38,864 nucleotides of DNA from Candidatus Shapirobacteria bacterium. Lineage in GTDB: Bacteria > Patescibacteriota > Microgenomatia > UBA12405. Numbering within the stretch: the first letter of the stretch is position 1; every line of letters starts with the position of its first letter. The DNA lies in contig JBAZTV010000004.1 in NCBI GenBank assembly GCA_041661765.1, forward strand, positions 1 to 38,864, given 5' to 3'. Under the pieces are notes generated by a model. It was not told the DNA's origin. It saw only the letters and a list, made by a program, of their open reading frames with translations, and searched no databases. A program made the position numbers and the translations under genes. This document shows, one piece after another, positions 1-38,864 of this stretch.

Positions 1-359
1 AAGTCTGGGATCAAGTCGTGGCTCAAGTCGGGGAGCAAGTCGGGGCTCAAGTCGGGGAGCAAGTCAGGAATCAAGTCTGGGATCAAGTCTGGGATCAAGT
101 CAGGGATCAAGTCAGGGATCAAGTCGGGGATCAAGTCGGGGAGCAAGTCGGGGAGCAAGTCGGGGCTCAAGTCAGGGCTCAAGTCAGGGCTCAAGTCAGG
201 GATCAAGTCAGGGCTCAAGTCTGGGATCAAGTCGGGGATCAAGTCTGGAATCAAGTCGGGGCTCAAGTCTTGGCTCAAGTCAGGGATCAAGTCAGGAATC
301 AAGTCGGGGATCAAGTCGGGGAGCAAGTCGGGGCTCAAGTCTGGGATCAAGTCGGGGAT
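1..359 (+). repeat. In-frame 12-bp tandem array, 30 units of CAAGTCnGGnnn (left part of the array that also ends the window)
   Basis: Direct reading: every unit starts with CAAGTC. Variation is confined to unit positions 7, 8, 10, 11 and 12. Confidence 0.97.
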
Positions 360-1211
360 CTGAAATATTATGAATTTTCAGATTATGGCAATTGTTCTGA
401 TTTTGGATGGTTATCTTTTTATGATTATTTTATGAACGAGTGTAATTTGATTCAAGATTATAGGGAAAAGTTAGATCTGATATCCTTGGCAGTTGATAGT
501 TCATTTATGTCTATACAGTTAGATGGGTTGTGTATTATAAGTAAGTATCCGTCATTCATGTCAAGAAATGCAAATAATTTACTTCACAATATTTCAGATT
601 TCGCCATTTCTTTTACCGATGGATATGGTCAACATTATTTTAATGGAATTTTTATAAAACCTGAATTATTCTGGAAATTAATAAACAAATCATACACGTT
701 TGAAGATTGGACAAAAGAAAAAAATGAAGAAATTAAATCCTTAGTCCTAGCATTTTATGAAGAAAAATTTGGCGGTGAATTTATTTTTAGGTTTTTATCA
801 GAATATTTGAAAGAAGTTGATTCATACATCGATAAAAAATCAGATGAATATTTAAAAAATACGACTAAAGGCATGAATATAGGAGTTTACACCCTTTTTA
901 AAGGAAATGTTAATTACATTCAAATAGCCTATGTGAGATGTTATTGTCCGTCTACTGACAGGATGTTCTTTTTAGGAGTTAATCCTAAAATCAATAACGC
1001 CAAAGATGCGATTGCTTCATTATGCCAAATACCAATTAAATTAAAAGATAATCTAATTTCAATATCAAGACAAGGCGAAATGTTTTCTTTTAATTTTGAC
1101 GAAGCTGGGACAAATTTATTAAAAGAAAATTCCTTAACTAAGGAAGATTTAAATAATGTCATTTCATTAACTGGAAATGAGTATTTTAGCAAAATTAAAT
1201 TTGAATATTAA
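1..1211 (+). CDS. 3' portion of the wrap-around repeat protein: 30 Q-V-x-x tetrapeptide units (nt 1-359, codon phase from nt 3) followed by a ~283-aa non-repetitive C-terminal domain; function unknown
   Basis: The frame is open from the first base. The track ORF 18..1211 only begins at an internal GTG. The CAA-GTC phase matches the ORF that leaves the window at 38864. Stop TAA at 1209-1211. Confidence 0.8.
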
Positions 1212-1221
1212 TAAAAAAATT

Positions 1222-1455
1222 ATGGAAACAATTGAAAAAATTAATGTAGCTGTTAAGTCAACTGAAGGCCATTTTGTTGAAAAGGCTAAAAGAGTAGTTT
1301 GTTTGGATGAAGTTAAGGAAGCCTTTTTTGTTGATGGCAATGCTGAATTAACCACAAAGAATCATCAAACATTAAAACTAGAGAAAGATTGTTTAATCAT
1401 GCCTCAACAAGTTTATAATCCTTATTTGAAATCATTAGAAAGAAGCAAAGATTGA
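1222..1455 (+). CDS. hypothetical protein (77 aa from ATG 1222)
   Basis: ATG lies 11 nt after the upstream stop. The track start at 1177 overlaps the previous gene. A hairpin terminator follows. Confidence 0.6.
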   Translation: METIEKINVAVKSTEGHFVEKAKRVVCLDEVKEAFFVDGNAELTTKNHQTLKLEKDCLIMPQQVYNPYLKSLERSKD

Positions 1456-1567: not shown

Positions 1568-1741
1568 ATGGAAAATGAAGATTATTTCAACAAAATATTA
1601 ACAGAAAATAAACCAAAAAGCAATATCGAAATGCTCAGACTTGTTTTAGATTTTAGTCATTCACCAGGCATTAATCAATTTGATATAAACAAATTCATTA
1701 CTAAACTTATTGAAAATGAACAAGAAAGACAAGAAAGTTAA
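1568..1741 (+). CDS. hypothetical protein (57 aa)
   Basis: ATG 1568 is in frame with track ORF 1556..1741. It is the first gene after the promoter box and overlaps the terS start. Confidence 0.5.
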   Translation: MENEDYFNKILTENKPKSNIEMLRLVLDFSHSPGINQFDINKFITKLIENEQERQES

Positions 1742-2267
1742 ATTGTCAGATAAGCAAAAGGCCTTTTGTCATTATTATATCATTGATTGGAACGCTACAA
1801 AGGCGGCAATTTTGGCCGGATATAGTCATAATTGTGCTCAACAAATAGGTTCAGAAAACTTGTTAAAACCTGTTATTCAGGCGTATATAGAAGAAATTCA
1901 AAAAGATATAGCCAAAGAAGCGGGTATATCCTTTCTTTCTCAAGTGATGGAATTAAAGAAAGTTGCTTACACAAATATTTCGGACATGTTTAAAGATTGG
2001 GTTTCATTAGAAGATTTCAATAGTCTTTCAAAAGAACAAAAGTCTGCGATATTGGAAATTAGCTATAAAAAAGATAAAATTAAAGATACTGAAATTGAAA
2101 CTGAATTTGTAAAATTAAAATTACATGATAAAATTAGAGCCATTCAAGAAATTAATAAGATGTTGGGATACTCGGTTGAAAATATTGATTTGACAAGTAA
2201 AGGGGAAAAGATTTCGACTGAAACGACTGTGAAATTTATCAATGCCCGAAAGAAAGGTTCTGAATAA
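1716..2267 (+). CDS. terS: terminase small subunit (Terminase_2 / PF03592-like)
   Basis: KLSDKQKAFCHYYIIDWNATKAAILAGYSHNCAQQIGSENLLKPVIQAYIEE matches the family's 'LT.kQ..F...Y....Na..Aa..AGYS...A...gs.lL..p.v...I' signature. It lies directly upstream of terL with a TAATG overlap. Confidence 0.85.
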   Translation: MNKKDKKVKLSDKQKAFCHYYIIDWNATKAAILAGYSHNCAQQIGSENLLKPVIQAYIEEIQKDIAKEAGISFLSQVMELKKVAYTNISDMFKDWVSLEDFNSLSKEQKSAILEISYKKDKIKDTEIETEFVKLKLHDKIRAIQEINKMLGYSVENIDLTSKGEKISTETTVKFINARKKGSE

Positions 2268-3637
2268 TGGAATTTACCCCGCTTGATGTATACGAACCAT
2301 TATATTTTACTCCTGATTCAGTCAGGTATATTTCAGCTTGTGGAGGCAGGGGTGGAGGGAGATCTCATAATTGTAGTGAATATTTTATTTTTAAAATTAC
2401 TAGACCACAATACTTCAGGGGATTAATTGCCAGGGCCGTATTTTCTGACTTAAAATTAACAACTTGGTTAGAATTTTGTGATAGGATATTTGATAATGAA
2501 AGCCTTAATCAAGCTGATTTCCATATCAATAATACTGAAAAGATAATCACTTACAAGCCAACTGGCAATACAATTACAGGAATAGGCTTTCGGAAATCTT
2601 CAAGTCAAAGAAAAGCCAGCTTAAAAGGATTTGCAAATGTTACAGATGTGCTAATCGAAGAAGCTCAGGAATTAAATGAAGCTGAATTAAACCAGCTTGA
2701 TGACTCTTTGCGGACAATAAAAGCTCCAATCAAGATAATATTTGCCTACAATATGCCTGAAAAGACTCATATTCTAATGAAAAGATTCTTTGATTTAGAG
2801 CCTGTGGAACTTGAAGATGGAAACGGTATAATTCATGAAGGTTTTATGAAAGCTATTCCCAAACCTTCCAGACCAGACCATATTATGATATTTTCATCAT
2901 ACCTTGAAAACTATAAACATCTTGATATACACACTATTGCCAATTATGAACGCTATTTTTATGATAATCCAGAGCATTATTTTAGTGAAATTTTGGGCTA
3001 TGTTTCGGGAGGTGCAAAAGGTGTAATTTTCAAATATAATATCAATTGGTTTGAATATTCAGAACTTCCAGACATCGATCTATATGAAACTTACGGTCTG
3101 GATTTCGGAGGCGGCGGCGTTAATGAAAAGCGCAAATGCTATCCAGAATTAATGGTGTTCGATGAACCTGATGGAAGTTCCACAACTGTATTGGTTAGGC
3201 TGTTAATAAACAAAGCTTCAATGAGTTGCTATGTTAAATTATTGCTTTACAAGGCTTATATCTCACCTGATGATCTTTCAAAAGTTTGTAAAGAATATTG
3301 TACAGAAAGCGACGGAAAGTATATAAAAAAGAAAAACATTTTAGCGGACAATGCCAGGGCGGACAAGATTAGGGATTTGCTTAATGATGGACTTTCTGTT
3401 ATTGGTGCTAAAACCAAGGAAGGCTCATCAAACAAAGTAACATCAGGCATTGATATAATTAAAAAATACAAAATATTCATTCACAAAGATGATATTCCTG
3501 CAATAGTTGAGGCCAATAATTTTCGTTGGGATGTTACCGCAAGTGGTGAATTAACTGGCAATGTTGCAGATAAATTTAAAGATTTTTGGGACGCTGTTCG
3601 TTATGCTTTGGTAAATTATGAATTGTATTCATGGTAA
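2267..3637 (+). CDS. terL: terminase large subunit
   Basis: 456 aa, translationally coupled to terS. It has the N-terminal Walker-A-like ACGGRGGGRSH and Walker-B-like VLIEEAQE. Size and position are typical of PBSX/Terminase_3-like TerL. Confidence 0.8.
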   Translation: MEFTPLDVYEPLYFTPDSVRYISACGGRGGGRSHNCSEYFIFKITRPQYFRGLIARAVFSDLKLTTWLEFCDRIFDNESLNQADFHINNTEKIITYKPTGNTITGIGFRKSSSQRKASLKGFANVTDVLIEEAQELNEAELNQLDDSLRTIKAPIKIIFAYNMPEKTHILMKRFFDLEPVELEDGNGIIHEGFMKAIPKPSRPDHIMIFSSYLENYKHLDIHTIANYERYFYDNPEHYFSEILGYVSGGAKGVIFKYNINWFEYSELPDIDLYETYGLDFGGGGVNEKRKCYPELMVFDEPDGSSTTVLVRLLINKASMSCYVKLLLYKAYISPDDLSKVCKEYCTESDGKYIKKKNILADNARADKIRDLLNDGLSVIGAKTKEGSSNKVTSGIDIIKKYKIFIHKDDIPAIVEANNFRWDVTASGELTGNVADKFKDFWDAVRYALVNYELYSW

Positions 3638-5132: not shown

Positions 5133-5615
5133 ATGAACCTAATAACGATAATCCAATCAGCATTAACAGCACTGAATAACACATCAGAGCTTTTTTTATT
5201 GGAGCGTGCCAGAGCCGAAAATGAAGAACTGAACCACGAAAAAGATGTAATTGTTATTTTTCCTGATTGGCGTACTTCAACAATATTAACCCAGGGCATG
5301 GAACTTTCAAAGGCCAGGGTTTACAATATCGATTTCAAAACACCTGACGAATGGGATAATTCAGATGGGAGCTTACCGACATCATACGAAAGCAAAACCA
5401 GTGCCGATAGGATAGAATTAATGGAAACTTTGGCAGATTCAATATTTTCATACATTAGCAGCCGAAATGATTTATTTCCTGAGATAAAATCAAAGCTGCA
5501 ATGGAAAACATTAAACCCTATTCTTAGGGCTAATAATGGCACAATGTCAGGCGTTTCTATTCAATTGACAGTAGTATTTGCAGGTGAAAAGATTTGTGAT
5601 TATGAGCAAAATTGA
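5133..5615 (+). CDS. hypothetical virion-module protein (160 aa)
   Basis: The ATG abuts the upstream TAA. Long ORF in a co-directional block. Confidence 0.75.
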   Translation: MNLITIIQSALTALNNTSELFLLERARAENEELNHEKDVIVIFPDWRTSTILTQGMELSKARVYNIDFKTPDEWDNSDGSLPTSYESKTSADRIELMETLADSIFSYISSRNDLFPEIKSKLQWKTLNPILRANNGTMSGVSIQLTVVFAGEKICDYEQN

Positions 5616-5865
5616 TATACTTATAGGTAGGCTTGCAACTCGAAGCAACTGCACCGGGAAAGCAGTTATTTCGCTTAATCTTGGAGGTGAAGAAAGGTTA
5701 AAGAATGAAATTTATAATCTGATTGATATTAATGATATATTTAAAATATTTTTTGATTATGCAGAAACTAATACATTGTTTAACAAGGATGTTATATGTA
5801 TAAATATTAACATGTTAGATTTACCTGAAATTGCAACAAAAATAACAGAACTATTGAAAAAATAA
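5602..5865 (+). CDS. hypothetical protein (87 aa from ATG 5602)
   Basis: In frame with track ORF 5578..5865, whose start is TTG. The ATG overlaps the upstream gene end by 14 nt. Confidence 0.65.
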   Translation: MSKIDILIGRLATRSNCTGKAVISLNLGGEERLKNEIYNLIDINDIFKIFFDYAETNTLFNKDVICININMLDLPEIATKITELLKK

Positions 5866-16381: not shown

Positions 16382-18925
16382 ATGGCAGATGAACAGGTAA
16401 TCATAAATATCAAGGTAACATCTGAAGAGATTTCAGAGGCTAACAAAAAGATTAATCAATTGACAGAATCTATTGAGGAGCTTAGCAATCAGACTGCATC
16501 GGCCCGTAAACAAAATGAATCCTATAAAGCTCAACAAAGGGAATTAATCGAACTTTATAGTCAAAATAAAATTTCTGCCGAAAAATATGATTCCGAAATC
16601 GACAAATTAAATGTCAAAATACAGGCAAATAACAAATTAATTGCTGAAAATACTGTTCATTTAAATGCCCAAAAAAATGAACGTACTGCTAATATTAAAT
16701 TAGTTGACTCTGAAACTGGAGCTTACACAAAGCTTTCCACAAATCTAAATAAGATTAGAAACGCTTATAAAGACCTGGTTGTAGAGAAAAAACACGATAC
16801 TGTAGAAGGTAAGGCAATGTTATTGCAAATCCAACAACTTGATGAACAGTTAAAAGAAGTTGACGCAACGGTTGGACAGCATCAAAGAAAAATAGGGCAA
16901 TATGAAAATGCAACAAAATCATTAAGGACTGAATTAAGAGAACTAAAACAAACCCTTTTCACCCTAGAAGAGGGCACTGAGGAATATAATAAAACATTAC
17001 AGCGTGCAGCTTTTTTGATGGACGAAATGGGAGATACCAACGCCCGAATTAAAGGAACAGCAATGGACTTTGAAGGCGTGATGGGTAATGTATCAAAAGT
17101 AACCCAAGGCGCAGCAAGTATGTTTGAAATCGCTCAGGGTGCGGAGGCTATTTTTGGAATAGAATCAGAAGATCTTGCAAAAACATTAGTGAAACTTCAG
17201 GCCGCAATGGCTATTGCAAACGGTTTACAAGGTCTTGATGGTATGGGTAAAGCAGTCAAAAACCTAGGTACTCAATTAATGCAATTCACAGCGGTTCAGA
17301 AAGTGGTTACAGCGGTTCAATGGTTGTGGAATGCTGCAATGAGTGCCAATCCTTTGGGTGTTGTGATTGTAGCGGTAACGGCTTTGATTGCCGGTATACG
17401 TGCGCTGGGAAATATTTTGGAAGACGATACAGAAAAATTAGATAAGGAGAGAACAGCATTAGACGGCGTTAAGTTTGCATCAAAAGAACTTGCTGATGCA
17501 CACAATGAACACATCGCTACAATGACTGAGTTAGGACAACAACTTGACGTGGTTACAGGAAAGATAACTGATTTCGATAAGGCGATGTTAGACCTAACCG
17601 AATCTTATAATGAAAGCCTTGTTAAAATAAGAGAGGATACCAAGAAAGAACTTGATGAGGTAGGGGGTTTCTGGGATTCGTTAAGAGACAAAAGAGGTTT
17701 GGACGGATTGAAAGAATTGATATGGCGTGAAGATAGGACAAAGAAAGTTTTACAAACATACAAAGATCAGCATCAAAAAGAACGCGATGCAACTGAAAAA
17801 TATAACATCGGAGCTAAATTACTTAGAAAAAAAGAAGCTCAAAAATTAGAAAAAGATTCAGAAGCTCAAAATAAAAAAGATTCAGAAGCTGCAAAAAAAG
17901 CACGTGAACAGAGACTTAAAGAAGAAAGCGATATCCTTAACGAAAATGTCTCATCAATATCTCCGTCAACACCATTCTCCGAACAACAAGAAGCGGAGAT
18001 AGAAGCAGAAAGAAAAAAAGCAGAAGATCTTGAAGCAATAAAAGCTGAATTTGCACAAAAGGACTTGGAGAATGCAGAAGCTGAAAGAGAAAGGAAAGAG
18101 ATTGACAGTCAATGGGAAATTGATAACGAAAAATGGAAAGATGACCAACTAATAGCAGAAAAGGCAAGGTTAGAACAGGCAAAAAAAGACTTGGAGGAAA
18201 GCGCTTGGGTAGCTGGTGAAGAAATAATCACAAACCTTGCTGATGCTTCTATGGATGAAAAATTATCGAAAATTAAGGCAGATTCAGAGGCTCAACAGGA
18301 AATATTAAAGAATCAGTTGGACAAAGGCTTAATTACAGAGGCGGATTACAATACTAAATTAGCGGCATTAAAAAAACAAACAAGTATCGATGAAGCAAAG
18401 GCTACCAAGAAGAAAGCGCTCTATGAAATTGCTATAGCCACATTAGTTGCAGCGGTGAAGGCGCTTCCTAATCTTATATTGTCAGCTTATGCACTTGCTC
18501 AGGGTGCGATACAAGCCGCTGTTGTTGCAGCAAAGCCAATACCAACTTTTGGGGGTGGTGTAAACAATATTGTTTCAATTGGTAATTCACATGCATCAGG
18601 TAATGATGTGGATGTATGGGGTTTTTCCGGGAACAAAAAACAATTCTTTGGAAAGGTTGAAAGAGGTGAAGCTATGCCTGTCATCAGAAAGTCGGCTGTA
18701 AACGACTATCAAATTGCGAAATTAAACGGTAAATTTTCATCAAATAACAGGACTTTTGCAAATGGAACTAATGACATAGTGCAGAATAGCCAGCAAATTG
18801 ACAGTAAAGAACTGTTAAATAATATGATGGTTGCCTTCTCTAATGTCAATATTGTGGCAAAAATTGAAGATATTACCAAACAAGCTGGAAGGAAGATGGA
18901 AATAATTGATAACTCTAAGGTTTAA
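16382..18925 (+). CDS. tape measure-like protein (847 aa)
   Basis: It is the longest ORF, with extensive coiled-coil (K/E/Q/L-rich) regions. It has central hydrophobic segments (VQWLWNAAMSANPLGVVIVAVTALIAGI) and a second hydrophobic patch near aa 690-720, both typical of TMPs. Confidence 0.65.
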   Translation: MADEQVIINIKVTSEEISEANKKINQLTESIEELSNQTASARKQNESYKAQQRELIELYSQNKISAEKYDSEIDKLNVKIQANNKLIAENTVHLNAQKNERTANIKLVDSETGAYTKLSTNLNKIRNAYKDLVVEKKHDTVEGKAMLLQIQQLDEQLKEVDATVGQHQRKIGQYENATKSLRTELRELKQTLFTLEEGTEEYNKTLQRAAFLMDEMGDTNARIKGTAMDFEGVMGNVSKVTQGAASMFEIAQGAEAIFGIESEDLAKTLVKLQAAMAIANGLQGLDGMGKAVKNLGTQLMQFTAVQKVVTAVQWLWNAAMSANPLGVVIVAVTALIAGIRALGNILEDDTEKLDKERTALDGVKFASKELADAHNEHIATMTELGQQLDVVTGKITDFDKAMLDLTESYNESLVKIREDTKKELDEVGGFWDSLRDKRGLDGLKELIWREDRTKKVLQTYKDQHQKERDATEKYNIGAKLLRKKEAQKLEKDSEAQNKKDSEAAKKAREQRLKEESDILNENVSSISPSTPFSEQQEAEIEAERKKAEDLEAIKAEFAQKDLENAEAERERKEIDSQWEIDNEKWKDDQLIAEKARLEQAKKDLEESAWVAGEEIITNLADASMDEKLSKIKADSEAQQEILKNQLDKGLITEADYNTKLAALKKQTSIDEAKATKKKALYEIAIATLVAAVKALPNLILSAYALAQGAIQAAVVAAKPIPTFGGGVNNIVSIGNSHASGNDVDVWGFSGNKKQFFGKVERGEAMPVIRKSAVNDYQIAKLNGKFSSNNRTFANGTNDIVQNSQQIDSKELLNNMMVAFSNVNIVAKIEDITKQAGRKMEIIDNSKV

Positions 18926-29961: not shown

Positions 29962-30873
29962 ATGGAAATAAAATTAATCGAAAATCTATCCAATGAAGAA
30001 TACCACAATGGTAAAGAGTATAAGGATTATTGGAGTAGTTCAAACATTAAAGAGTACCTTAATAGTCCACGTGAAGCATACTATCAAAAGTTTGTTGCAG
30101 AACATGAAAGTAAGGACGCTTTTATGTTTGGCTCGCAACTTCATGATTATATGGCAAGTAAACACATAAAAGGTCAACCATTTACATGGAATGTTTTTGA
30201 ACCTCCTAAAAACAATAAGGGCGAATATTTTGGCAAAACATCACAAGCATATAAAGATGCCTTAAAATCAGTGAATAATGGAATACATCCCAAAGATCTT
30301 GAAATAATAAAAGACATTTGGTCAATGATATTAGAATCACAATATGCATGGTATTTCCAAAAAGAAATATTAAAAAAAGGGACTGTTGAAGAATCAATAT
30401 TTATTAATGGAATACATAAGTATAAGATTAGAAAAGATGTTGATACTGGTAATGAGATTCTTGATTATAAAACAATTAAGAAGGAGGACTTTTATCATTA
30501 TCGTAATAACGTGATAACATCACAAAAATACGATATAAGTGCAGCAATGTACCAATATTTTGAGCATCAAAGGACAGGAATTTGGAAGCCTTTTAAAATA
30601 ATCTGGATAATGAAAGATCCGCCATACGACATCTTAATCCAGGATATTTCTTGTTATTGTTTTGAAAACATAGGAAATAATAATGTAATTCCAAACTCTG
30701 GCGCAAATGTATTTTTAAAGTTAAAAGATCAACATGAAGCTTGTCAAATGGCAAATTGTTGGCCCGGTTTAGCCAACCAATTCGATGCCTATAATGGTGT
30801 TAGGATTGATACTACTATGCCACGATTTGAACGTGGTTTTGAACAGTTTGAAATTAATATTGATAATTTTTAG
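29962..30873 (+). CDS. PD-(D/E)XK recombination exonuclease (RecE/exonuclease VIII-like, DUF3799-type)
   Basis: LSNEEYHNG...YWSSSNIKEYLNSPREAY...FGSQLHDY and D-x7-LDYKT match the PD-(D/E)XK core arrangement. It lies in the same module as recT. Confidence 0.65.
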   Translation: MEIKLIENLSNEEYHNGKEYKDYWSSSNIKEYLNSPREAYYQKFVAEHESKDAFMFGSQLHDYMASKHIKGQPFTWNVFEPPKNNKGEYFGKTSQAYKDALKSVNNGIHPKDLEIIKDIWSMILESQYAWYFQKEILKKGTVEESIFINGIHKYKIRKDVDTGNEILDYKTIKKEDFYHYRNNVITSQKYDISAAMYQYFEHQRTGIWKPFKIIWIMKDPPYDILIQDISCYCFENIGNNNVIPNSGANVFLKLKDQHEACQMANCWPGLANQFDAYNGVRIDTTMPRFERGFEQFEINIDNF

Positions 30874-31687: not shown

Positions 31688-32758
31688 ATGAGCAACTTAA
31701 AAAAGGCTTTTACCCAGGACTTAGCCAAAAAAGAAATTCCTGAAATAGTGGCACTGGTCAAACAGGTGTATGAAAAGAATAATTTATCTGCCGAATTGGA
31801 ACTTCAATTCATTCAATTGAAAATTAATTCAAGTCCTGAATTAATAAGGGCTGCAAAGGCAAATCCTGAAAGCTTGTATAATTCAATTTTGCAAGCTGCT
31901 GAAAGTGGCTTAAGCCTTAATCCCCAATGGCAGGAGGGATATTTCGTGCCTTACAACATGAAAATTGATGGCAAAGATATTCCAACAGTTACTTTTAGCC
32001 CGATGTATAGAGGCAAAAAGAAACTTCTTATCGTAAAAGGAATTGTAAAAAATATTGAGACTCAGCTCGTATATGAAGGTGAATGGTTCGAGGAAAATAT
32101 AGTCAATGGTGTTCATCAAATTAGTCATAAACCAAATTCATTCAGGCGTCAAGATAATTCCAAAATTATTGGAGGTTATGCCATTGTAACGCTAAATAAT
32201 GATGAAAAGCAGTACATCGTAAAAGGCCGGGATTATTTCGATCGTTGCATGAAAGCATCCCAGCAAAAAATGGGAGGCAAAACAAGCCCTGCATGGTCTC
32301 AATGGTTTGACCAAATGTGTGAAAAATGCCTTGTCAATGCAGCCGATTCAAAGATTCCTAAAATTGGAGTTAACGAAGAAACCACCAAGCTTCTGAATGA
32401 CATTAATACAAACGATATCGATTATACTGATGTTACAGATGAGAATATTCAGAAAATTGAGCCCGTTAAAAATTCGATTTCAGACGTGGAATTTTCCCAA
32501 TTGATTAGCGACCTATACGATTATAATATTTCACTGGCAGAGGCAAGAAAAAACCCCAAGAAATTTATTTTAACGGATGAACAGAAAAAGGAAATAATTA
32601 AAGCCGGGACAATTGATGAAAAAAGAATCGATGAAATAATCAAATTGGTCATTGATGACAAATTTAAACTTGGTTATTTTGAATTTTTCCTCAATCCTGA
32701 GCAATTTGAACAGGTTAAGAATGCTGTGATTGATAGCGAATTAAACAAACAAAAGTAA
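31688..32758 (+). CDS. recT: RecT-family single-strand annealing protein with a long C-terminal extension
   Basis: SILQAAESGLSLNPQWQEGYFVPY... matches the RecT core block (GL.p...eaylvPy). It is adjacent to the exonuclease. Confidence 0.7.
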   Translation: MSNLKKAFTQDLAKKEIPEIVALVKQVYEKNNLSAELELQFIQLKINSSPELIRAAKANPESLYNSILQAAESGLSLNPQWQEGYFVPYNMKIDGKDIPTVTFSPMYRGKKKLLIVKGIVKNIETQLVYEGEWFEENIVNGVHQISHKPNSFRRQDNSKIIGGYAIVTLNNDEKQYIVKGRDYFDRCMKASQQKMGGKTSPAWSQWFDQMCEKCLVNAADSKIPKIGVNEETTKLLNDINTNDIDYTDVTDENIQKIEPVKNSISDVEFSQLISDLYDYNISLAEARKNPKKFILTDEQKKEIIKAGTIDEKRIDEIIKLVIDDKFKLGYFEFFLNPEQFEQVKNAVIDSELNKQK

Positions 32759-35395: not shown

Positions 35396-35776
35396 ATGGA
35401 TATGAAAAAAAATCTTAGTTACTCCGAAAAATTAAAACATCCACTTTGGCAGAAAAAACGCTTAGAAATAATGGAAAGAGATAAATTTACATGCCAAAGT
35501 TGTTATGACAATGAATCTACGTTAAATGTACATCACTCTCTATATTTAAAAAATCATGAAATATGGGATTACCCTAGTGAGTTACTTGTAACTTTATGTG
35601 AAAATTGTCATCAACAAAAACATGAATTAACACAATCTATATTGATTACATTAGCTAAAACATATGATAATAATTCATTAAATGACATATTTGAAATAGT
35701 AGATATTTTAGCAATAATGAGACCTGATAAAACAGCATCAATTCTTAATATAATAAAAGAAATTAAAGCATTTTGA
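35396..35776 (+). CDS. HNH-type zinc-binding nuclease-like protein (126 aa)
   Basis: W.KKR..I..RD.FTCQSC ... LNVHH ... LVTLCENCHQQKH shows CxxC...HH...CxxCH spacing. Confidence 0.6.
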   Translation: MDMKKNLSYSEKLKHPLWQKKRLEIMERDKFTCQSCYDNESTLNVHHSLYLKNHEIWDYPSELLVTLCENCHQQKHELTQSILITLAKTYDNNSLNDIFEIVDILAIMRPDKTASILNIIKEIKAF

Positions 35777-35793
35777 TAATTTTCATTTATGTT

Positions 35794-36537
35794 ATGGAAA
35801 AATTACGATCAGTTAATACTAAATTCTGGAATGATCCTTTTATCGAGAAACTAGATAGTAAGGAAAAACTATTATTCATTTATTTTTTAACAAATCCACA
35901 GGCTAATATTCTTGGAATTTATGAAATATCTTTAAATAGAATTTCATTTGATACTGGATTAAAAGTTGAAAGCATTGAAAAGGCTTTGAAAGGCTTTGAA
36001 AGGGTTAGTAAGGTATTTTATTTAGATGGATTTATAATATTGGCCAATTTCCAGAAAAATCAGAACATGAATTCAAACATGGAAAAGGGGGCTATTGAAT
36101 TATTCAAAAAACTTCCTAATAAAGTGAAATCCTTAGTTTTAGACAAGGCTTTGAAAGGCTTTGAAAGGCTTTCAAATGGTTTTAAAGACTTTGAGAAATA
36201 TGAAAGTGAAAGTGAAAGTGAAAGTGAATTAAAAAATGAAAACGATGTAATTTTTGATTTTAAAAAATCTATTTTGAATTTAGGCGTTGAAGAAAAAGTA
36301 ATTAATGAATGGTTAAAAATAAGAAAATCTAAAAAAGCATCAAATTCTGAAATTGCTTTTAATTCAATAAAAAATGAAATTGAAAAAAGCAACATGTCAG
36401 CAAATAAGTGTATAGAAATGGCTGTAATTAAAAGTTGGAGAGGTTTTGAGGCAGAATGGATTAAAAATATTCAGCAAAAAGAAAATATACCAGCATCAAA
36501 ACCTGGATTAGTAAAAATCGAATTTAAACGGCATTAA
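35794..36537 (+). CDS. phage replisome organiser / DnaD-like replication initiation protein
   Basis: FWNDPFIEKLDSKEKLLFIYFLTNPQANILGIYEISLNRISFDTGL resembles replisome-organiser N-terminal domains (DUF4373 / Phage_rep_org_N type). It lies directly upstream of dnaB and contains internal iteron-like DNA repeats. Confidence 0.55.
   Translation: MEKLRSVNTKFWNDPFIEKLDSKEKLLFIYFLTNPQANILGIYEISLNRISFDTGLKVESIEKALKGFERVSKVFYLDGFIILANFQKNQNMNSNMEKGAIELFKKLPNKVKSLVLDKALKGFERLSNGFKDFEKYESESESESELKNENDVIFDFKKSILNLGVEEKVINEWLKIRKSKKASNSEIAFNSIKNEIEKSNMSANKCIEMAVIKSWRGFEAEWIKNIQQKENIPASKPGLVKIEFKRH
35971..36003 (+). repeat. Period-10 iteron-like repeats, set 1 (AGCATTGAAA AGGCTTTGAA AGGCTTTGAA AGG)
   Basis: Direct reading. 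Confidence 0.8.
36146..36195 (+). repeat. Period-10 iteron-like repeats, set 2 (AGGCTTTGAA x2, AGGCTTTCAA, ATGGTTTTAA, AGACTTTGAG)
   Basis: Direct reading. The core is the same as in set 1, 165 bp downstream of it. Confidence 0.8.
36202..36228 (+). repeat. Hexamer tandem repeat (GAAAGT)x4 + GAA, encoding ESESESESE
   Basis: Direct reading. An AT-rich stretch follows it. Confidence 0.9.
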
Positions 36538-37926
36538 ATGAACGCACCTCCACAAGATTTAAATATTGAAAAGGCTGTTTTGGGTGCTATTTTGCTCGAA
36601 AAAGACGCCATTTACACGGCTATTCAGATAATTAAACCAAATGCTTTTTATTCTGATAATCATAATATTATATATAATGCTATTTATAAGCTTTATACAG
36701 AAAGAAAGCCAATAGATTTATTAACAGTTTCAAACGAATTAAGGGAATCAAATAAACTTGATTCTATTGGTGGAGCTTATTATATTTCATCATTGACAAA
36801 CAATGTCGGGTCCTGTGCAAATCTTGAAAATCATTGTAAAATATTATATGAATTATTCTTAAGGCGTGAAATGATAAGGACTTTAATGAGTTTCACGAAT
36901 GTAATTGATAATGATTATGAAAAAGACATTTTCGAGTCTTACAACAATATAAGTGCTGAATTATCAAGCCTTTTTGAGCTTTCATTGAGTTCTGATTATC
37001 ATAATATGAAAGATGTTATTTCCGAAAGGCTCAATAAAATAGCAGAAATTAAACCAAATGAAAATAATCTTATTGGAATTAACACGGGATTTTCACGATT
37101 AAATAGTTTCACAAACGGACTACAGTCTGGAGATTATGTCATAATTGGGGCCAGACCGTCAATGGGAAAAACAATTATTTCATTGCTTATTGCCAGGGCT
37201 GCAATTTTTCAATCAAAAAAGAAAGTTTTATATTTTTCACTTGAAATGAACAAAGAAAGAATAGCAGATAGACTTCTTTCGATTGAAAGTAAAATTGATT
37301 CAAAGAAAATTGCATCAAACAGACTTGATAATTGTGAATGGAAAAACCTTGATGAATCACAAGGGCTTTATAATAACAAAGATTTTTTCATTATTGATAA
37401 TTCAGGAATGACAATTGAAGATATTAAAGCCAGGTGTATTACTTTACATAGGAAGTTTGGAATAGATGAGGTTATAATTGATTATATTCAGCTAATTAAG
37501 CACTCTTTTAAAAATAGAAACACAAACGACAATGTTACTCATATCTCAAAAAACATTAAGGCTATTGCAAAAGAAATTAATTGCCCAATAATAGCGTTAT
37601 CACAGCTAAACCGGGGCGGAGTTGGTAGGCCTGAAATGAAAGATTTAAGGGATTCAGGAAGCTTAGAGCAAGATGCCGATATTATTTGGCTATTGCATAG
37701 AGAAGATTATGAAGGCTGTGAATGTCTTCCTGAAGCAATAAATAGAATTGATAACATTATTGCTAAAAATAGAAATGGTGACGTTGGGGCATTCTACACT
37801 TACAGAAATGATATTTGGTCTTATATTGGAGAAATAAGATTCGAGGAATTAGCAAGTATCGAAAATCAGATGCCATTCAATGCTTATGATGGAATTGATA
37901 TTAACGAAAATCCATTTAATTTATGA
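36538..37926 (+). CDS. dnaB: replicative DNA helicase DnaB
   Basis: The N-terminus PPQDLNIEKAVLGAILLEKDAI is present. Walker A is GARPSMGKT, followed by FSLEM, and IIDYIQLI sits at the Walker B position. LSQLNRG and the DSGSLEQDADI blocks are also present. Confidence 0.9.
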   Translation: MNAPPQDLNIEKAVLGAILLEKDAIYTAIQIIKPNAFYSDNHNIIYNAIYKLYTERKPIDLLTVSNELRESNKLDSIGGAYYISSLTNNVGSCANLENHCKILYELFLRREMIRTLMSFTNVIDNDYEKDIFESYNNISAELSSLFELSLSSDYHNMKDVISERLNKIAEIKPNENNLIGINTGFSRLNSFTNGLQSGDYVIIGARPSMGKTIISLLIARAAIFQSKKKVLYFSLEMNKERIADRLLSIESKIDSKKIASNRLDNCEWKNLDESQGLYNNKDFFIIDNSGMTIEDIKARCITLHRKFGIDEVIIDYIQLIKHSFKNRNTNDNVTHISKNIKAIAKEINCPIIALSQLNRGGVGRPEMKDLRDSGSLEQDADIIWLLHREDYEGCECLPEAINRIDNIIAKNRNGDVGAFYTYRNDIWSYIGEIRFEELASIENQMPFNAYDGIDINENPFNL

Positions 37927-38376: not shown

Positions 38377-38864
38377 ATGGAAAAGATTAATCTATTAACA
38401 ATAGATCAGGAAAGTAAATTAACCACTTATAAAGATAAGTGGCTTAATAAAATCTTTAAATATGAGTTATATAATTCTGTAACGAAAGAATCTGTTATTC
38501 TTAAAATTAAAGAATTATATAAGTTTTGCAATCTAAAAGATCCGTTAGTTTTATTGGTTGACAGTCCTATGGCTTGCCAAATTGCAGCTAATATAATTCA
38601 AGTCTGGGCTCAAGTCTGGGCTCAAGTCAGGGCTCAAGTCAGGGATCAAGTCAGGAATCAAGTCGGGGATCAAGTCGGGGAGCAAGTCGGGGCTCAAGTC
38701 TGGGCTCAAGTCGGGGCTCAAGTCGGGGAGCAAGTCGGGGCTCAAGTCGGGGAGCAAGTCGGGGCTCAAGTCGGGGAGCAAGTCAGGAATCAAGTCTGGG
38801 ATCAAGTCTGGGATCAAGTCAGGGATCAAGTCAGGGATCAAGTCGGGGATCAAGTCGGGGAGCA
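38377..38864 (+). CDS. 5' portion of the wrap-around repeat protein: 74-aa N-terminal domain, then QVxx units; open at the window end
   Basis: ATG 38377 gives [74 protein letters not shown], then [12 protein letters not shown].... There is no stop before 38864. It is absent from the ORF track because it is unterminated. Confidence 0.8.
38599..38864 (+). repeat. In-frame 12-bp tandem array, 22 units + 2 nt (right part)
   Basis: Direct reading. The last 122 nt (38743-38864) are identical to nt 24-145. Confidence 0.97.

Follow-up and report, generated by a model that had tools for sequence, protein, structure and literature searches.

The locus

The stretch of DNA considered here, a 38,864-nt contig assigned to a Candidatus Shapirobacteria bacterium (GenBank assembly GCA_041661765.1, contig JBAZTV010000004.1; hereafter "the window", meaning the whole stretch that was analysed), is a tailed-phage genome of about 38.7 kb with all of its genes on the forward strand, and it both begins and ends within a tandem array of 12-nt coding units. 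Followed across the two ends, the gene order gives a product made up of a 74-aa N-terminal domain, a run of Gln-Val-x-x tetrapeptides, (QVxx)n, and a 283-aa C-terminal domain of the DUF6745 type, with the array in frame with both an ATG at 38377 and a stop codon at 1209-1211. The features of the gene and of the small open reading frame (ORF) that follows it are:

38377..38598, forward strand: N-terminal domain, 74 aa (MEKINLL...AANII), ATG at 38377 in frame with the array; conserved in homologs; AlphaFold2 (AF2) confidence (predicted local distance difference test, pLDDT) 83-96
38599..38864, forward strand: array, 5' segment, 22 units CAAGTC-NKG-RMK plus 2 nt, continuing past the window end
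1..359, forward strand: array, 3' segment, 29 full units after a partial unit of 11 nt
360..1211, forward strand: C-terminal DUF6745-type domain, 283 aa plus stop; sub-threshold match to Pfam PF20530; supported by homologs; AF2 pLDDT mostly 77-97
1222..1455, forward strand: conserved partner ORF of about 77 aa (METIEKINVAVKSTEGHF...), directly downstream of the DUF6745 gene

Units and codons of the array

Tandem Repeats Finder places period-12 arrays at 1-360 and 38598-38861 of the window. When these are phased on CAAGTC, the first resolves into a partial unit at 1-11 and full units at 12-359, and the second into full units at 38599-38862 with 2 nt left over. The consensus of the 51 complete units is CAAGTC-NKG-RMK, or Gln-Val-x-x. 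Unit positions 1-6 (CAA GTC) and 9 are invariant in 51/51, and all variation lies at positions 7 (G25/A15/T11), 8 (G49/T2), 10 (G46/A5), 11 (A34/C17) and 12 (T41/G10). The original prediction, made from the letters of the window, held that the Gln and Val codons carry no synonymous difference and that each of eleven unit types changes a residue. Both statements stand: the eleven nucleotide types are also eleven peptide types (GE, GA, GD, RD, RA, RN, WD, WA, WN, VA, LA), with no synonymous unit variant among the 51. Its further observation of a 58-nt block present at both ends is exact as well, the block lying within a longer 74-nt identity (38631-38704 = 272-345).

The codons of the array are atypical for this genome, as had also been remarked: elsewhere in the window, only 7% of Val residues are encoded by GTC, 11% of Gly by GGG and 17% of Glu by GAG, and the GC content of the array is 57% vs 32% for the rest of the window. 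Taken alone, the window has five variable columns, with none scored at a third codon position, for which the chance expectation is C(9,5)/C(12,5) = 0.16; this is weakly non-random, and the statistical weight rests on the arrays of the wider family.

A 100-aa antisense ORF at 38551-38853 (reverse strand), wholly within the array, is a by-product of a stop-free 12-nt repeat and not evidence for a gene.

The DUF6745 family

The window protein matches Pfam PF20530 (DUF6745) over residues 291-368 only, with 22.5 bits and E=7.5e-5, below the 27-bit gathering cutoff. The whole C-terminal domain is nevertheless clearly homologous to DUF6745 carriers: of its 411 homologs, the best match is 74% identical (E=3e-133), and a precomputed PF20530 hit accompanies most of the 120 that were listed. 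A full HMMER scan recovered 1092 representatives at 50% identity (E<=1e-3). Against Pfam, NCBIfam and PHROGs, the full protein matched only DUF6745, below threshold, besides PHROGs without a name and low-complexity hits (GvpQ, tape-measure) that are noise.

Homologs are found both on viral contigs and in the early regions of prophages of Bacteroidota. At a Niabella locus the DUF6745 gene adjoins genes for RusA, a sliding clamp, a primase and an HNH endonuclease, and another locus keeps the order DnaB, DUF6745 gene, partner that is seen in the window. The architecture of the homologs is likewise that of the window protein: an N-terminal domain, an array of [Q/N/S/E]-[V/I/L]-x-x units (or S-Q-L-x, S-E-L-x, S-S-L-x), and the DUF6745 domain. 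Arrays of at least 4 units are present in 66/93 full-length close homologs and arrays of at least 5 units in 50/138 distant representatives, down to about 30% identity, while a minority of family members have a short non-repetitive linker instead; overall, array length ranges from 0 to about 58 units. Some of the long arrays are internal to contigs or to a complete chromosome (locus L008, from Chryseobacterium sp. HR92; also L019 and L032).

No cultured relative was found in 50,697 isolate phage records by blastn and tblastn, and exact-junction searches of IMG/VR and of JGI metagenomes for the same phage gave no match. Exact-protein look-ups with the partial array protein and with the small (TerS) and large (TerL) terminase subunits also gave no match, and only the DnaB sequence retrieved a contig from the Logan assemblies. 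The literature searched contained no mention of DUF6745, and none was found that combined tetrapeptide repeats, bacteriophage and hypervariability.

Codon pattern across the family

Thirty-one arrays with 781 units were compared codon by codon, counting as an extra allele every codon beyond the first in a column. Only 6 of the 154 extra codon alleles are synonymous (3.9%, vs 22% expected for random single-nucleotide changes; binomial p=1.8e-10). The other 148 are non-synonymous and fall at one or two codons per unit, and the variable columns are distributed over codon positions 1, 2 and 3 as 37:35:7. Variation is thus concentrated in a few codons with an excess of non-synonymous changes, as judged by allele counts.

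What is fixed within an array differs between arrays. In Q-V arrays, the Val codon used throughout is GTC in the window, L053 and L054, GTT in L008, L017-L019 and L024, GTG in L022, and GTA in L007 and L058, and the Gln codon is either CAA or CAG; across other arrays the invariant nucleotides include CAGGTT, AATGTC, TCTCAGGTA, AGCCAGTTA and TCACAGCTT. Only the peptide pattern is conserved from one array to the next: a polar residue, then Val, Leu or Ile, then a variable residue. This disposes of a candidate DNA- or RNA-level motif CAAGTCnGG, offered in the original prediction as one of two explanations for the uniformity of the units, since its invariant nucleotides are not shared by homologous arrays.

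The variable codon behaves in the same way, with an array-specific third base and variation in the first two. In V-type arrays it takes the forms NGG, GAG and NTG (W, R, G, E, V, L). L-type arrays use either NRT or NRC, according to the array, for D, Y, R, G, S, N, C and H, and their Arg codon is CGY and not AGA, the commonest Arg codon elsewhere in the window (39%). The same residue sets (W/R/G/E; D/Y/R/G/S) recur on different synonymous backgrounds.

Repeats in the 31 arrays are therefore more alike within a gene than between orthologs, and this combination of homogeneity within an array and divergence between arrays indicates, at the level of sequence comparison, concerted evolution. The recurrence of the same residue sets on different synonymous backgrounds implies either that diversity is regenerated after homogenisation or that it is preserved while synonymous changes sweep through; both routes require selection on the protein or, less likely, a site-specific mutator.

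Several individual arrays have peculiarities of their own. In L020, L026, L037 and L054, identical units are adjacent less often than in shuffled arrays (e.g. LGLGLG, RGRGRG), and L032 has a four-unit DDYY super-period that suggests multi-unit duplication steps. In L043 (IMGVR_UViG_3300020036_006249, about 5300-5850), some 45 units within an S-E-L-x array are read in the +1 frame, as ANLI/ANLV/ANFV, before the SELx frame resumes, and no stop codon intervenes. Either the frame has truly shifted twice or the sequence contains an error; other frames of the repeat are open as well.

Turnover of units in relatives

In eight clusters defined at 90% identity, full-length members share their N- and C-terminal domains exactly or to within about 5 residues, while the arrays between these domains range from 3 to 48 units and differ in unit order. 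In most of these clusters the lengths of full-length members differ by multiples of 4 aa. A control cluster without arrays, P0060, has a length of 357 aa in 9/9 full-length members read.

At the DNA level, four MEGAHIT contigs assembled from different samples with k=141 were compared. Their flanks differ by 1/2267, 1/1689 and 11/5968 nt, and their arrays have 22, 12, 12 and 10 units. L058 and L060, one difference apart over 2267 flanking nucleotides, have 22 vs 12 units, and L060 and L061, one difference apart over 1689, have arrays ERGWWEWGWEWG vs ERRGRWREWG. All four draw on one set of four units, in which TCTCAGGTA precedes AGG, GAG, GGG or TGG. An array of 10 units (120 nt) is covered by a single 141-mer, so that at least the short arrays are real molecules. 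Repeat number and repeat order are thus polymorphic among near-identical alleles in relatives of the window phage. Other pairs are less informative: the flanks of L007 and L008, two Chryseobacterium prophages, are only about 72% identical, too weak a match for such a comparison, and in the pairs L035/L036 and L042/L043 the arrays differ but one member is at a contig end or frameshifted.

These comparisons bear out the other explanation put forward in the original prediction, unit turnover together with selection on the variable residues. Arrays are internally homogeneous with different synonymous codons fixed in each, identical flanking domains enclose 3-48 units, and different arrays are found beside flanks of 1.7-2.3 kb with a single mismatch. 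A fixed array with ordinary synonymous drift in related genomes, which would have spoken against that explanation, is the opposite of what was found, with lengths of 3-48 units and 6/154 synonymous alleles.

Assembly of the window ends

The two ends of the window share a 126-nt block:

20..145: copy one, identical to 38739-38864; an assembly overlap or a true internal duplication
38739..38864: copy two, identical to 20-145

Just before these copies, 1-19 and 38720-38738 differ by 3 mismatches, and joining the end of the window directly to its start (GAGCA+AAGTC) produces a 13-nt unit and breaks the reading frame. Since the ends share 126 nt and have no in-frame join, the assembly must have broken inside the array, and the number and order of units given here for this phage are provisional. 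The block length equals k-1 for k=127, as would be expected of an assembly overlap. About 10.5 units are either double-counted or genuinely duplicated in the window, and the array would have 40 units if the overlap is collapsed and at least 51 if both copies are real. The window is accordingly a phage genome opened inside its array and not closed by the assembler. The suspicion of an assembly artefact raised in the original prediction was justified to this extent, and its total of 52 units can be kept only as a count of what is written at the two ends (51 full units), not as the size or order of the array.

Similar failures are the rule for short-read assembly at these arrays. An independent assembly of the same phage with k=31, the 38,332-nt Logan contig L055 from run SRR18595301, is 100% identical over 6.1 kb and ends 4 units into the array. 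At about 17/50 related loci the contig terminates inside the array or at its edge; among contigs from IMG/VR and metagenome-assembled genomes (MAGs), L005, L009, L014, L018, L021, L022, L024, L025, L027-L030, L036, L044 and L046 end in a tetrapeptide array. Unit counts from metagenomic contigs are therefore not to be trusted, and tetrapeptide arrays may falsely set the "ends" of viral contigs in short-read assemblies.

Structure and possible function

In AF2 models the N- and C-terminal domains are confident and the array appears as long helices at low confidence. Hydrophobic residues recur with a period of 4.0, vs 3.5 for a heptad coiled coil, which the array therefore does not resemble. An antiparallel helical hairpin, with W-G knob-in-hole contacts and R-D/E salt bridges, was considered and rejected: shuffle tests on 16 complete arrays gave p values of 0.04-1.0, with no signal. 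Foldseek searches of the PDB with two AF2 models gave nothing better than E=0.28, and a sequence-profile search of the PDB gave no relative. A single structural match was obtained, in BFVD, to the model of the DUF6745 protein from Microcystis phage LMM01 (E=3e-13). PADLOC had no match for the DUF6745-type protein, its partner or two upstream small ORFs.

Of the 32 loci examined, most have a homolog of the partner ORF just after the DUF6745 gene, with 43-92% amino acid identity and the pattern …VNVAPSSTEGHF…TKNHT…CLITCQ.VYNPF… (also at L008 6846-7079 and, in a prophage of Niabella sp. CC-SYL272, L056 11296-11532), suggesting that the two genes form a module; the partner ORF has no Pfam or PADLOC match. 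In L039 (6815-6988), the small ORF downstream of an array-less DUF6745 gene is itself an x-S-V-x tetrapeptide array (NSVWDSVYNSVSDSVYDSVWGSVSDSVRD…).

To judge from the behaviour of the gene, whose phage-specific product belongs to the early region, has a rapidly evolving segment that is probably exposed, and comes with a small, constant partner, the protein may serve in interaction with the host or in counter-defence.

Genomic context

The DUF6745-type gene stands between the genes for DnaB helicase and the small terminase, that is, between the replication and packaging modules. PHROG scans identified the following genes in the window:

35773-36537, forward strand: replication initiator
36538-37926, forward strand: DnaB helicase
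1710-2267, forward strand: TerS
2267-3637, forward strand: TerL
16382-18925, forward strand: tape-measure protein

Pfam scans added a ClpP-type protease, a candidate capsid protein, RecT and a PDDEXK nuclease. The last two, a PDDEXK-like nuclease (DUF3799) and RecT at 29962-30873 and 31688-32758, are a phage single-strand-annealing recombination pair, and could promote the reshuffling of units in the array. The initiator gene contains two clusters of a 10-nt repeat, TTGAAAGGCT, and a (TGAAAG)x4.7 tract (35966-36003, 36145-36194 and 36201-36228); by analogy with lambda gene O, these look like origin iterons embedded in the gene.

Origin and maintenance of the pattern

The array is probably a coding minisatellite that evolves by slippage or recombination, with selection at the protein level keeping codons 3 and 4 polymorphic. 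In outline, tandem 12-nt units that separate the N-terminal from the C-terminal domain of a DUF6745-family phage protein would be continually duplicated, deleted and reshuffled by slippage or by unequal/homologous recombination, a process whose outcome is visible in the relatives described above. This turnover would homogenise every site of the unit, leaving no synonymous differences and allowing genome-rare codons (GTC, GGG, GAG) to persist. Selection on the protein, for which the relatives argue, would meanwhile maintain alternatives at codon 3 (W/R/G, rarely V/L) and codon 4 (D/A/E/N); opposing homogenisation in this way, it would keep the array a mosaic of a few unit types. In this way the segment would far outpace the rest of the phage genome in changes of length and residue pattern, and no diversity-generating retroelement (DGR) would be involved. 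The array itself is most likely an exposed, length-variable spacer or an interaction surface in phage-host conflict.

Several points weigh against this account. Selection at codons 3 and 4 is deduced from the contrast with synonymous sites and not from a codon model, which leaves some room for a site-specific mutational process. Turnover is seen in relatives only, no near-identical relative of the window phage with a resolved array having been found, and the population evidence comes from short-read metagenome assemblies, in which long arrays may be collapsed or chimerised and k-mers guarantee only arrays of up to about 10 units. The helices modelled for the array have pLDDT values of 44-78 in a 40-unit model and 40-53 in a 7-unit homolog, and helices are not readily formed by Gly, Val, Asp and Asn; the models therefore lend no support to an exposed spacer or interaction surface. 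Finally, searches of the literature, the PDB, Pfam and PADLOC assigned no function to DUF6745 or to its partner.

Among other possibilities, the array could be a neutral variable-number tandem repeat (VNTR) in an unconstrained flexible linker, codons 3 and 4 tolerating any residue without selection for diversity. Homologs with anything from 0 to about 58 units, members that make do with a short non-repetitive linker, the low AF2 confidence of the array and a unit order near random in most arrays would all fit. Such a linker should, however, accumulate synonymous polymorphism as readily as tolerated non-synonymous changes, while synonymous alleles number 6/154 and the variable codon has 3-6 alleles in nearly every array. 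The same few alleles also recur (W/R/G/E or D/Y/R/G/S), with most others one mutational step away rare or absent, and a neutral linker is on balance unlikely. Targeted hypermutation, by a DGR-like or other site-specific mutator writing the variable positions, would explain why variation always falls in the same one or two codons, whatever the unit or array. It is considered improbable: no reverse transcriptase (RT) was found by Pfam in ten large ORFs or in the ten scanned against PHROGs (small ORFs were partly scanned), the window contains no further copy of the array that could serve as a template, the substitutions are not adenine-specific (G/A/T at 7, G/T at 8, G/A at 10, A/C at 11, T/G at 12), and the context of the variable codon differs from array to array (GTC|NGG, CTT|NRT, TTG|NAT...), with no common target motif. 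The suggestion in the original prediction that DGR machinery is absent is upheld as far as it was tested, in the ten large ORFs, in the search for a template copy and in the substitution pattern.

An element acting as DNA or RNA (origin iterons, a packaging site, a recombination hotspot or a structured RNA), with the coding pattern secondary, might be suspected from the position of the array between replication and packaging genes, from the many contigs that end in it, and from its 57% GC in a 32% GC genome. This is very improbable, as the nucleotides of the unit are not conserved in the family while the peptide pattern is, variation lies at codon positions 1-2 and not 3, and long ORFs stay in frame across arrays of as many as 58 units; the contig ends are as expected from short-read failure (the k=31 Logan assembly breaks after 4 units), and a separate, more conventional iteron cluster exists inside the initiator gene. 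Hardly credible at all is a mosaic fabricated by assembly, from misjoined reads of a simpler repeat. The shared 126 nt at the window ends, their lack of an in-frame join, the differing first 19 nt and the roughly 17/50 related contigs that stop inside or at the edge of an array point that way, but all eleven unit types and their short-range order fit within a read length, the same architecture is found inside long contigs, an isolate draft genome and a complete chromosome, and arrays of up to 10 units in k=141 contigs are covered by single k-mers. Misassembly may have altered the number or order of units in the window, but cannot generate the codon pattern.

Comparison with known systems

The closest described behaviour is that of the high-internal-conservation (HIC) WD40, ANK and TPR repeats of fungal NOD-like receptors (NLRs), for example het-d/het-e, which are reported to evolve in concert, to be shuffled, to vary in repeat number and to undergo diversifying selection at a few codons (Paoletti et al., 2007, PMC1805685; Dyrka et al., 2014, PMC4986451). 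As in those genes, near-identical coding repeats evolve in concert, vary in number and are reshuffled, variation falls in a few codons per unit, and the arrays break short-read assemblies. Unlike them, the array has a unit of 4 aa (12 nt) and not of about 42 aa, belongs to a bacteriophage and not a fungus, has no mutator resembling repeat-induced point mutation (RIP), and has neither a WD40/ANK/TPR fold nor a NOD/STAND domain (no Pfam match).

A looser analogy is with transcription activator-like (TAL) effectors, in whose arrays two adjacent residues per unit likewise carry nearly all of the variation, the unit alphabet is small, and recombination between units is the source of new alleles. 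TAL effector units are helical hairpins of 33-35 aa with a demonstrated code of one unit for one DNA base; the phage units have 4 aa, and nothing points to nucleic-acid binding. The array shares with contingency loci and coding VNTRs, such as the Ser-Asp stalks of staphylococcal Sdr/Clf proteins or mycoplasma Vlp, a change in repeat number that outpaces point substitution and an in-frame variation in length. The description of the segment as "contingency-type" thus suits its rapid changes in copy number, but not the on/off phase variation that the term also evokes, as a 12-nt unit, a multiple of 3, never shifts the frame. Unlike Sdr/Clf or Vlp repeats, the phage units are kept as a mosaic and are not homopolymeric, and they lie in an early-region protein and not in a known surface adhesin.

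With DGRs the array has in common a phage protein segment in which variation is restricted to particular codons; it differs in having no RT (in the large ORFs scanned), no template/variable repeat pair and no adenine-specific mutagenesis, with reshuffling and point variants instead. Some homolog units, [A/D]-N-L-[R/W] or [A/D]-N-V-x, resemble the start of the pentapeptide-repeat consensus (A[D/N]LXX; Qnr/MfpA type), but the period is strictly 4, there is no match to Pfam PF00805, and AF2 predicts no beta-helix. The array is therefore not a fungal-type HIC NLR, a TAL effector, a DGR, a frameshifting contingency locus or a member of the pentapeptide repeats. It is regarded here as a phage variant of the hypervariable, internally conserved type of coding repeat, one with very short units that is spread across a family of uncharacterised domains.

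Significance

A more speculative extension, put forward tentatively, is that these arrays form an RT-free, recombination-driven system for generating diversity, widespread in phages of Bacteroidota and other bacteria. Units with one or two hypervariable, paratope-like residues each (W/R/G/E plus D/A/N; D/Y/R/G/S) would be shuffled, giving new specificities of binding or evasion with which the phage keeps pace with its host, a defence system being one possible target, perhaps with the help of the partner of about 77 aa.

The known route to targeted protein hypervariation in phages is the DGR. A 12-nt coding minisatellite alone would be a second: its units turn over fast enough to clear synonymous sites, yet one or two codons per unit stay polymorphic. 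The family in which this occurs is large, at about 1,100 clusters at 50% identity, and the DUF6745-type product, an early-region phage protein that combines a rapidly changing segment with a constant partner gene, is a good candidate for a host-interaction or counter-defence factor.

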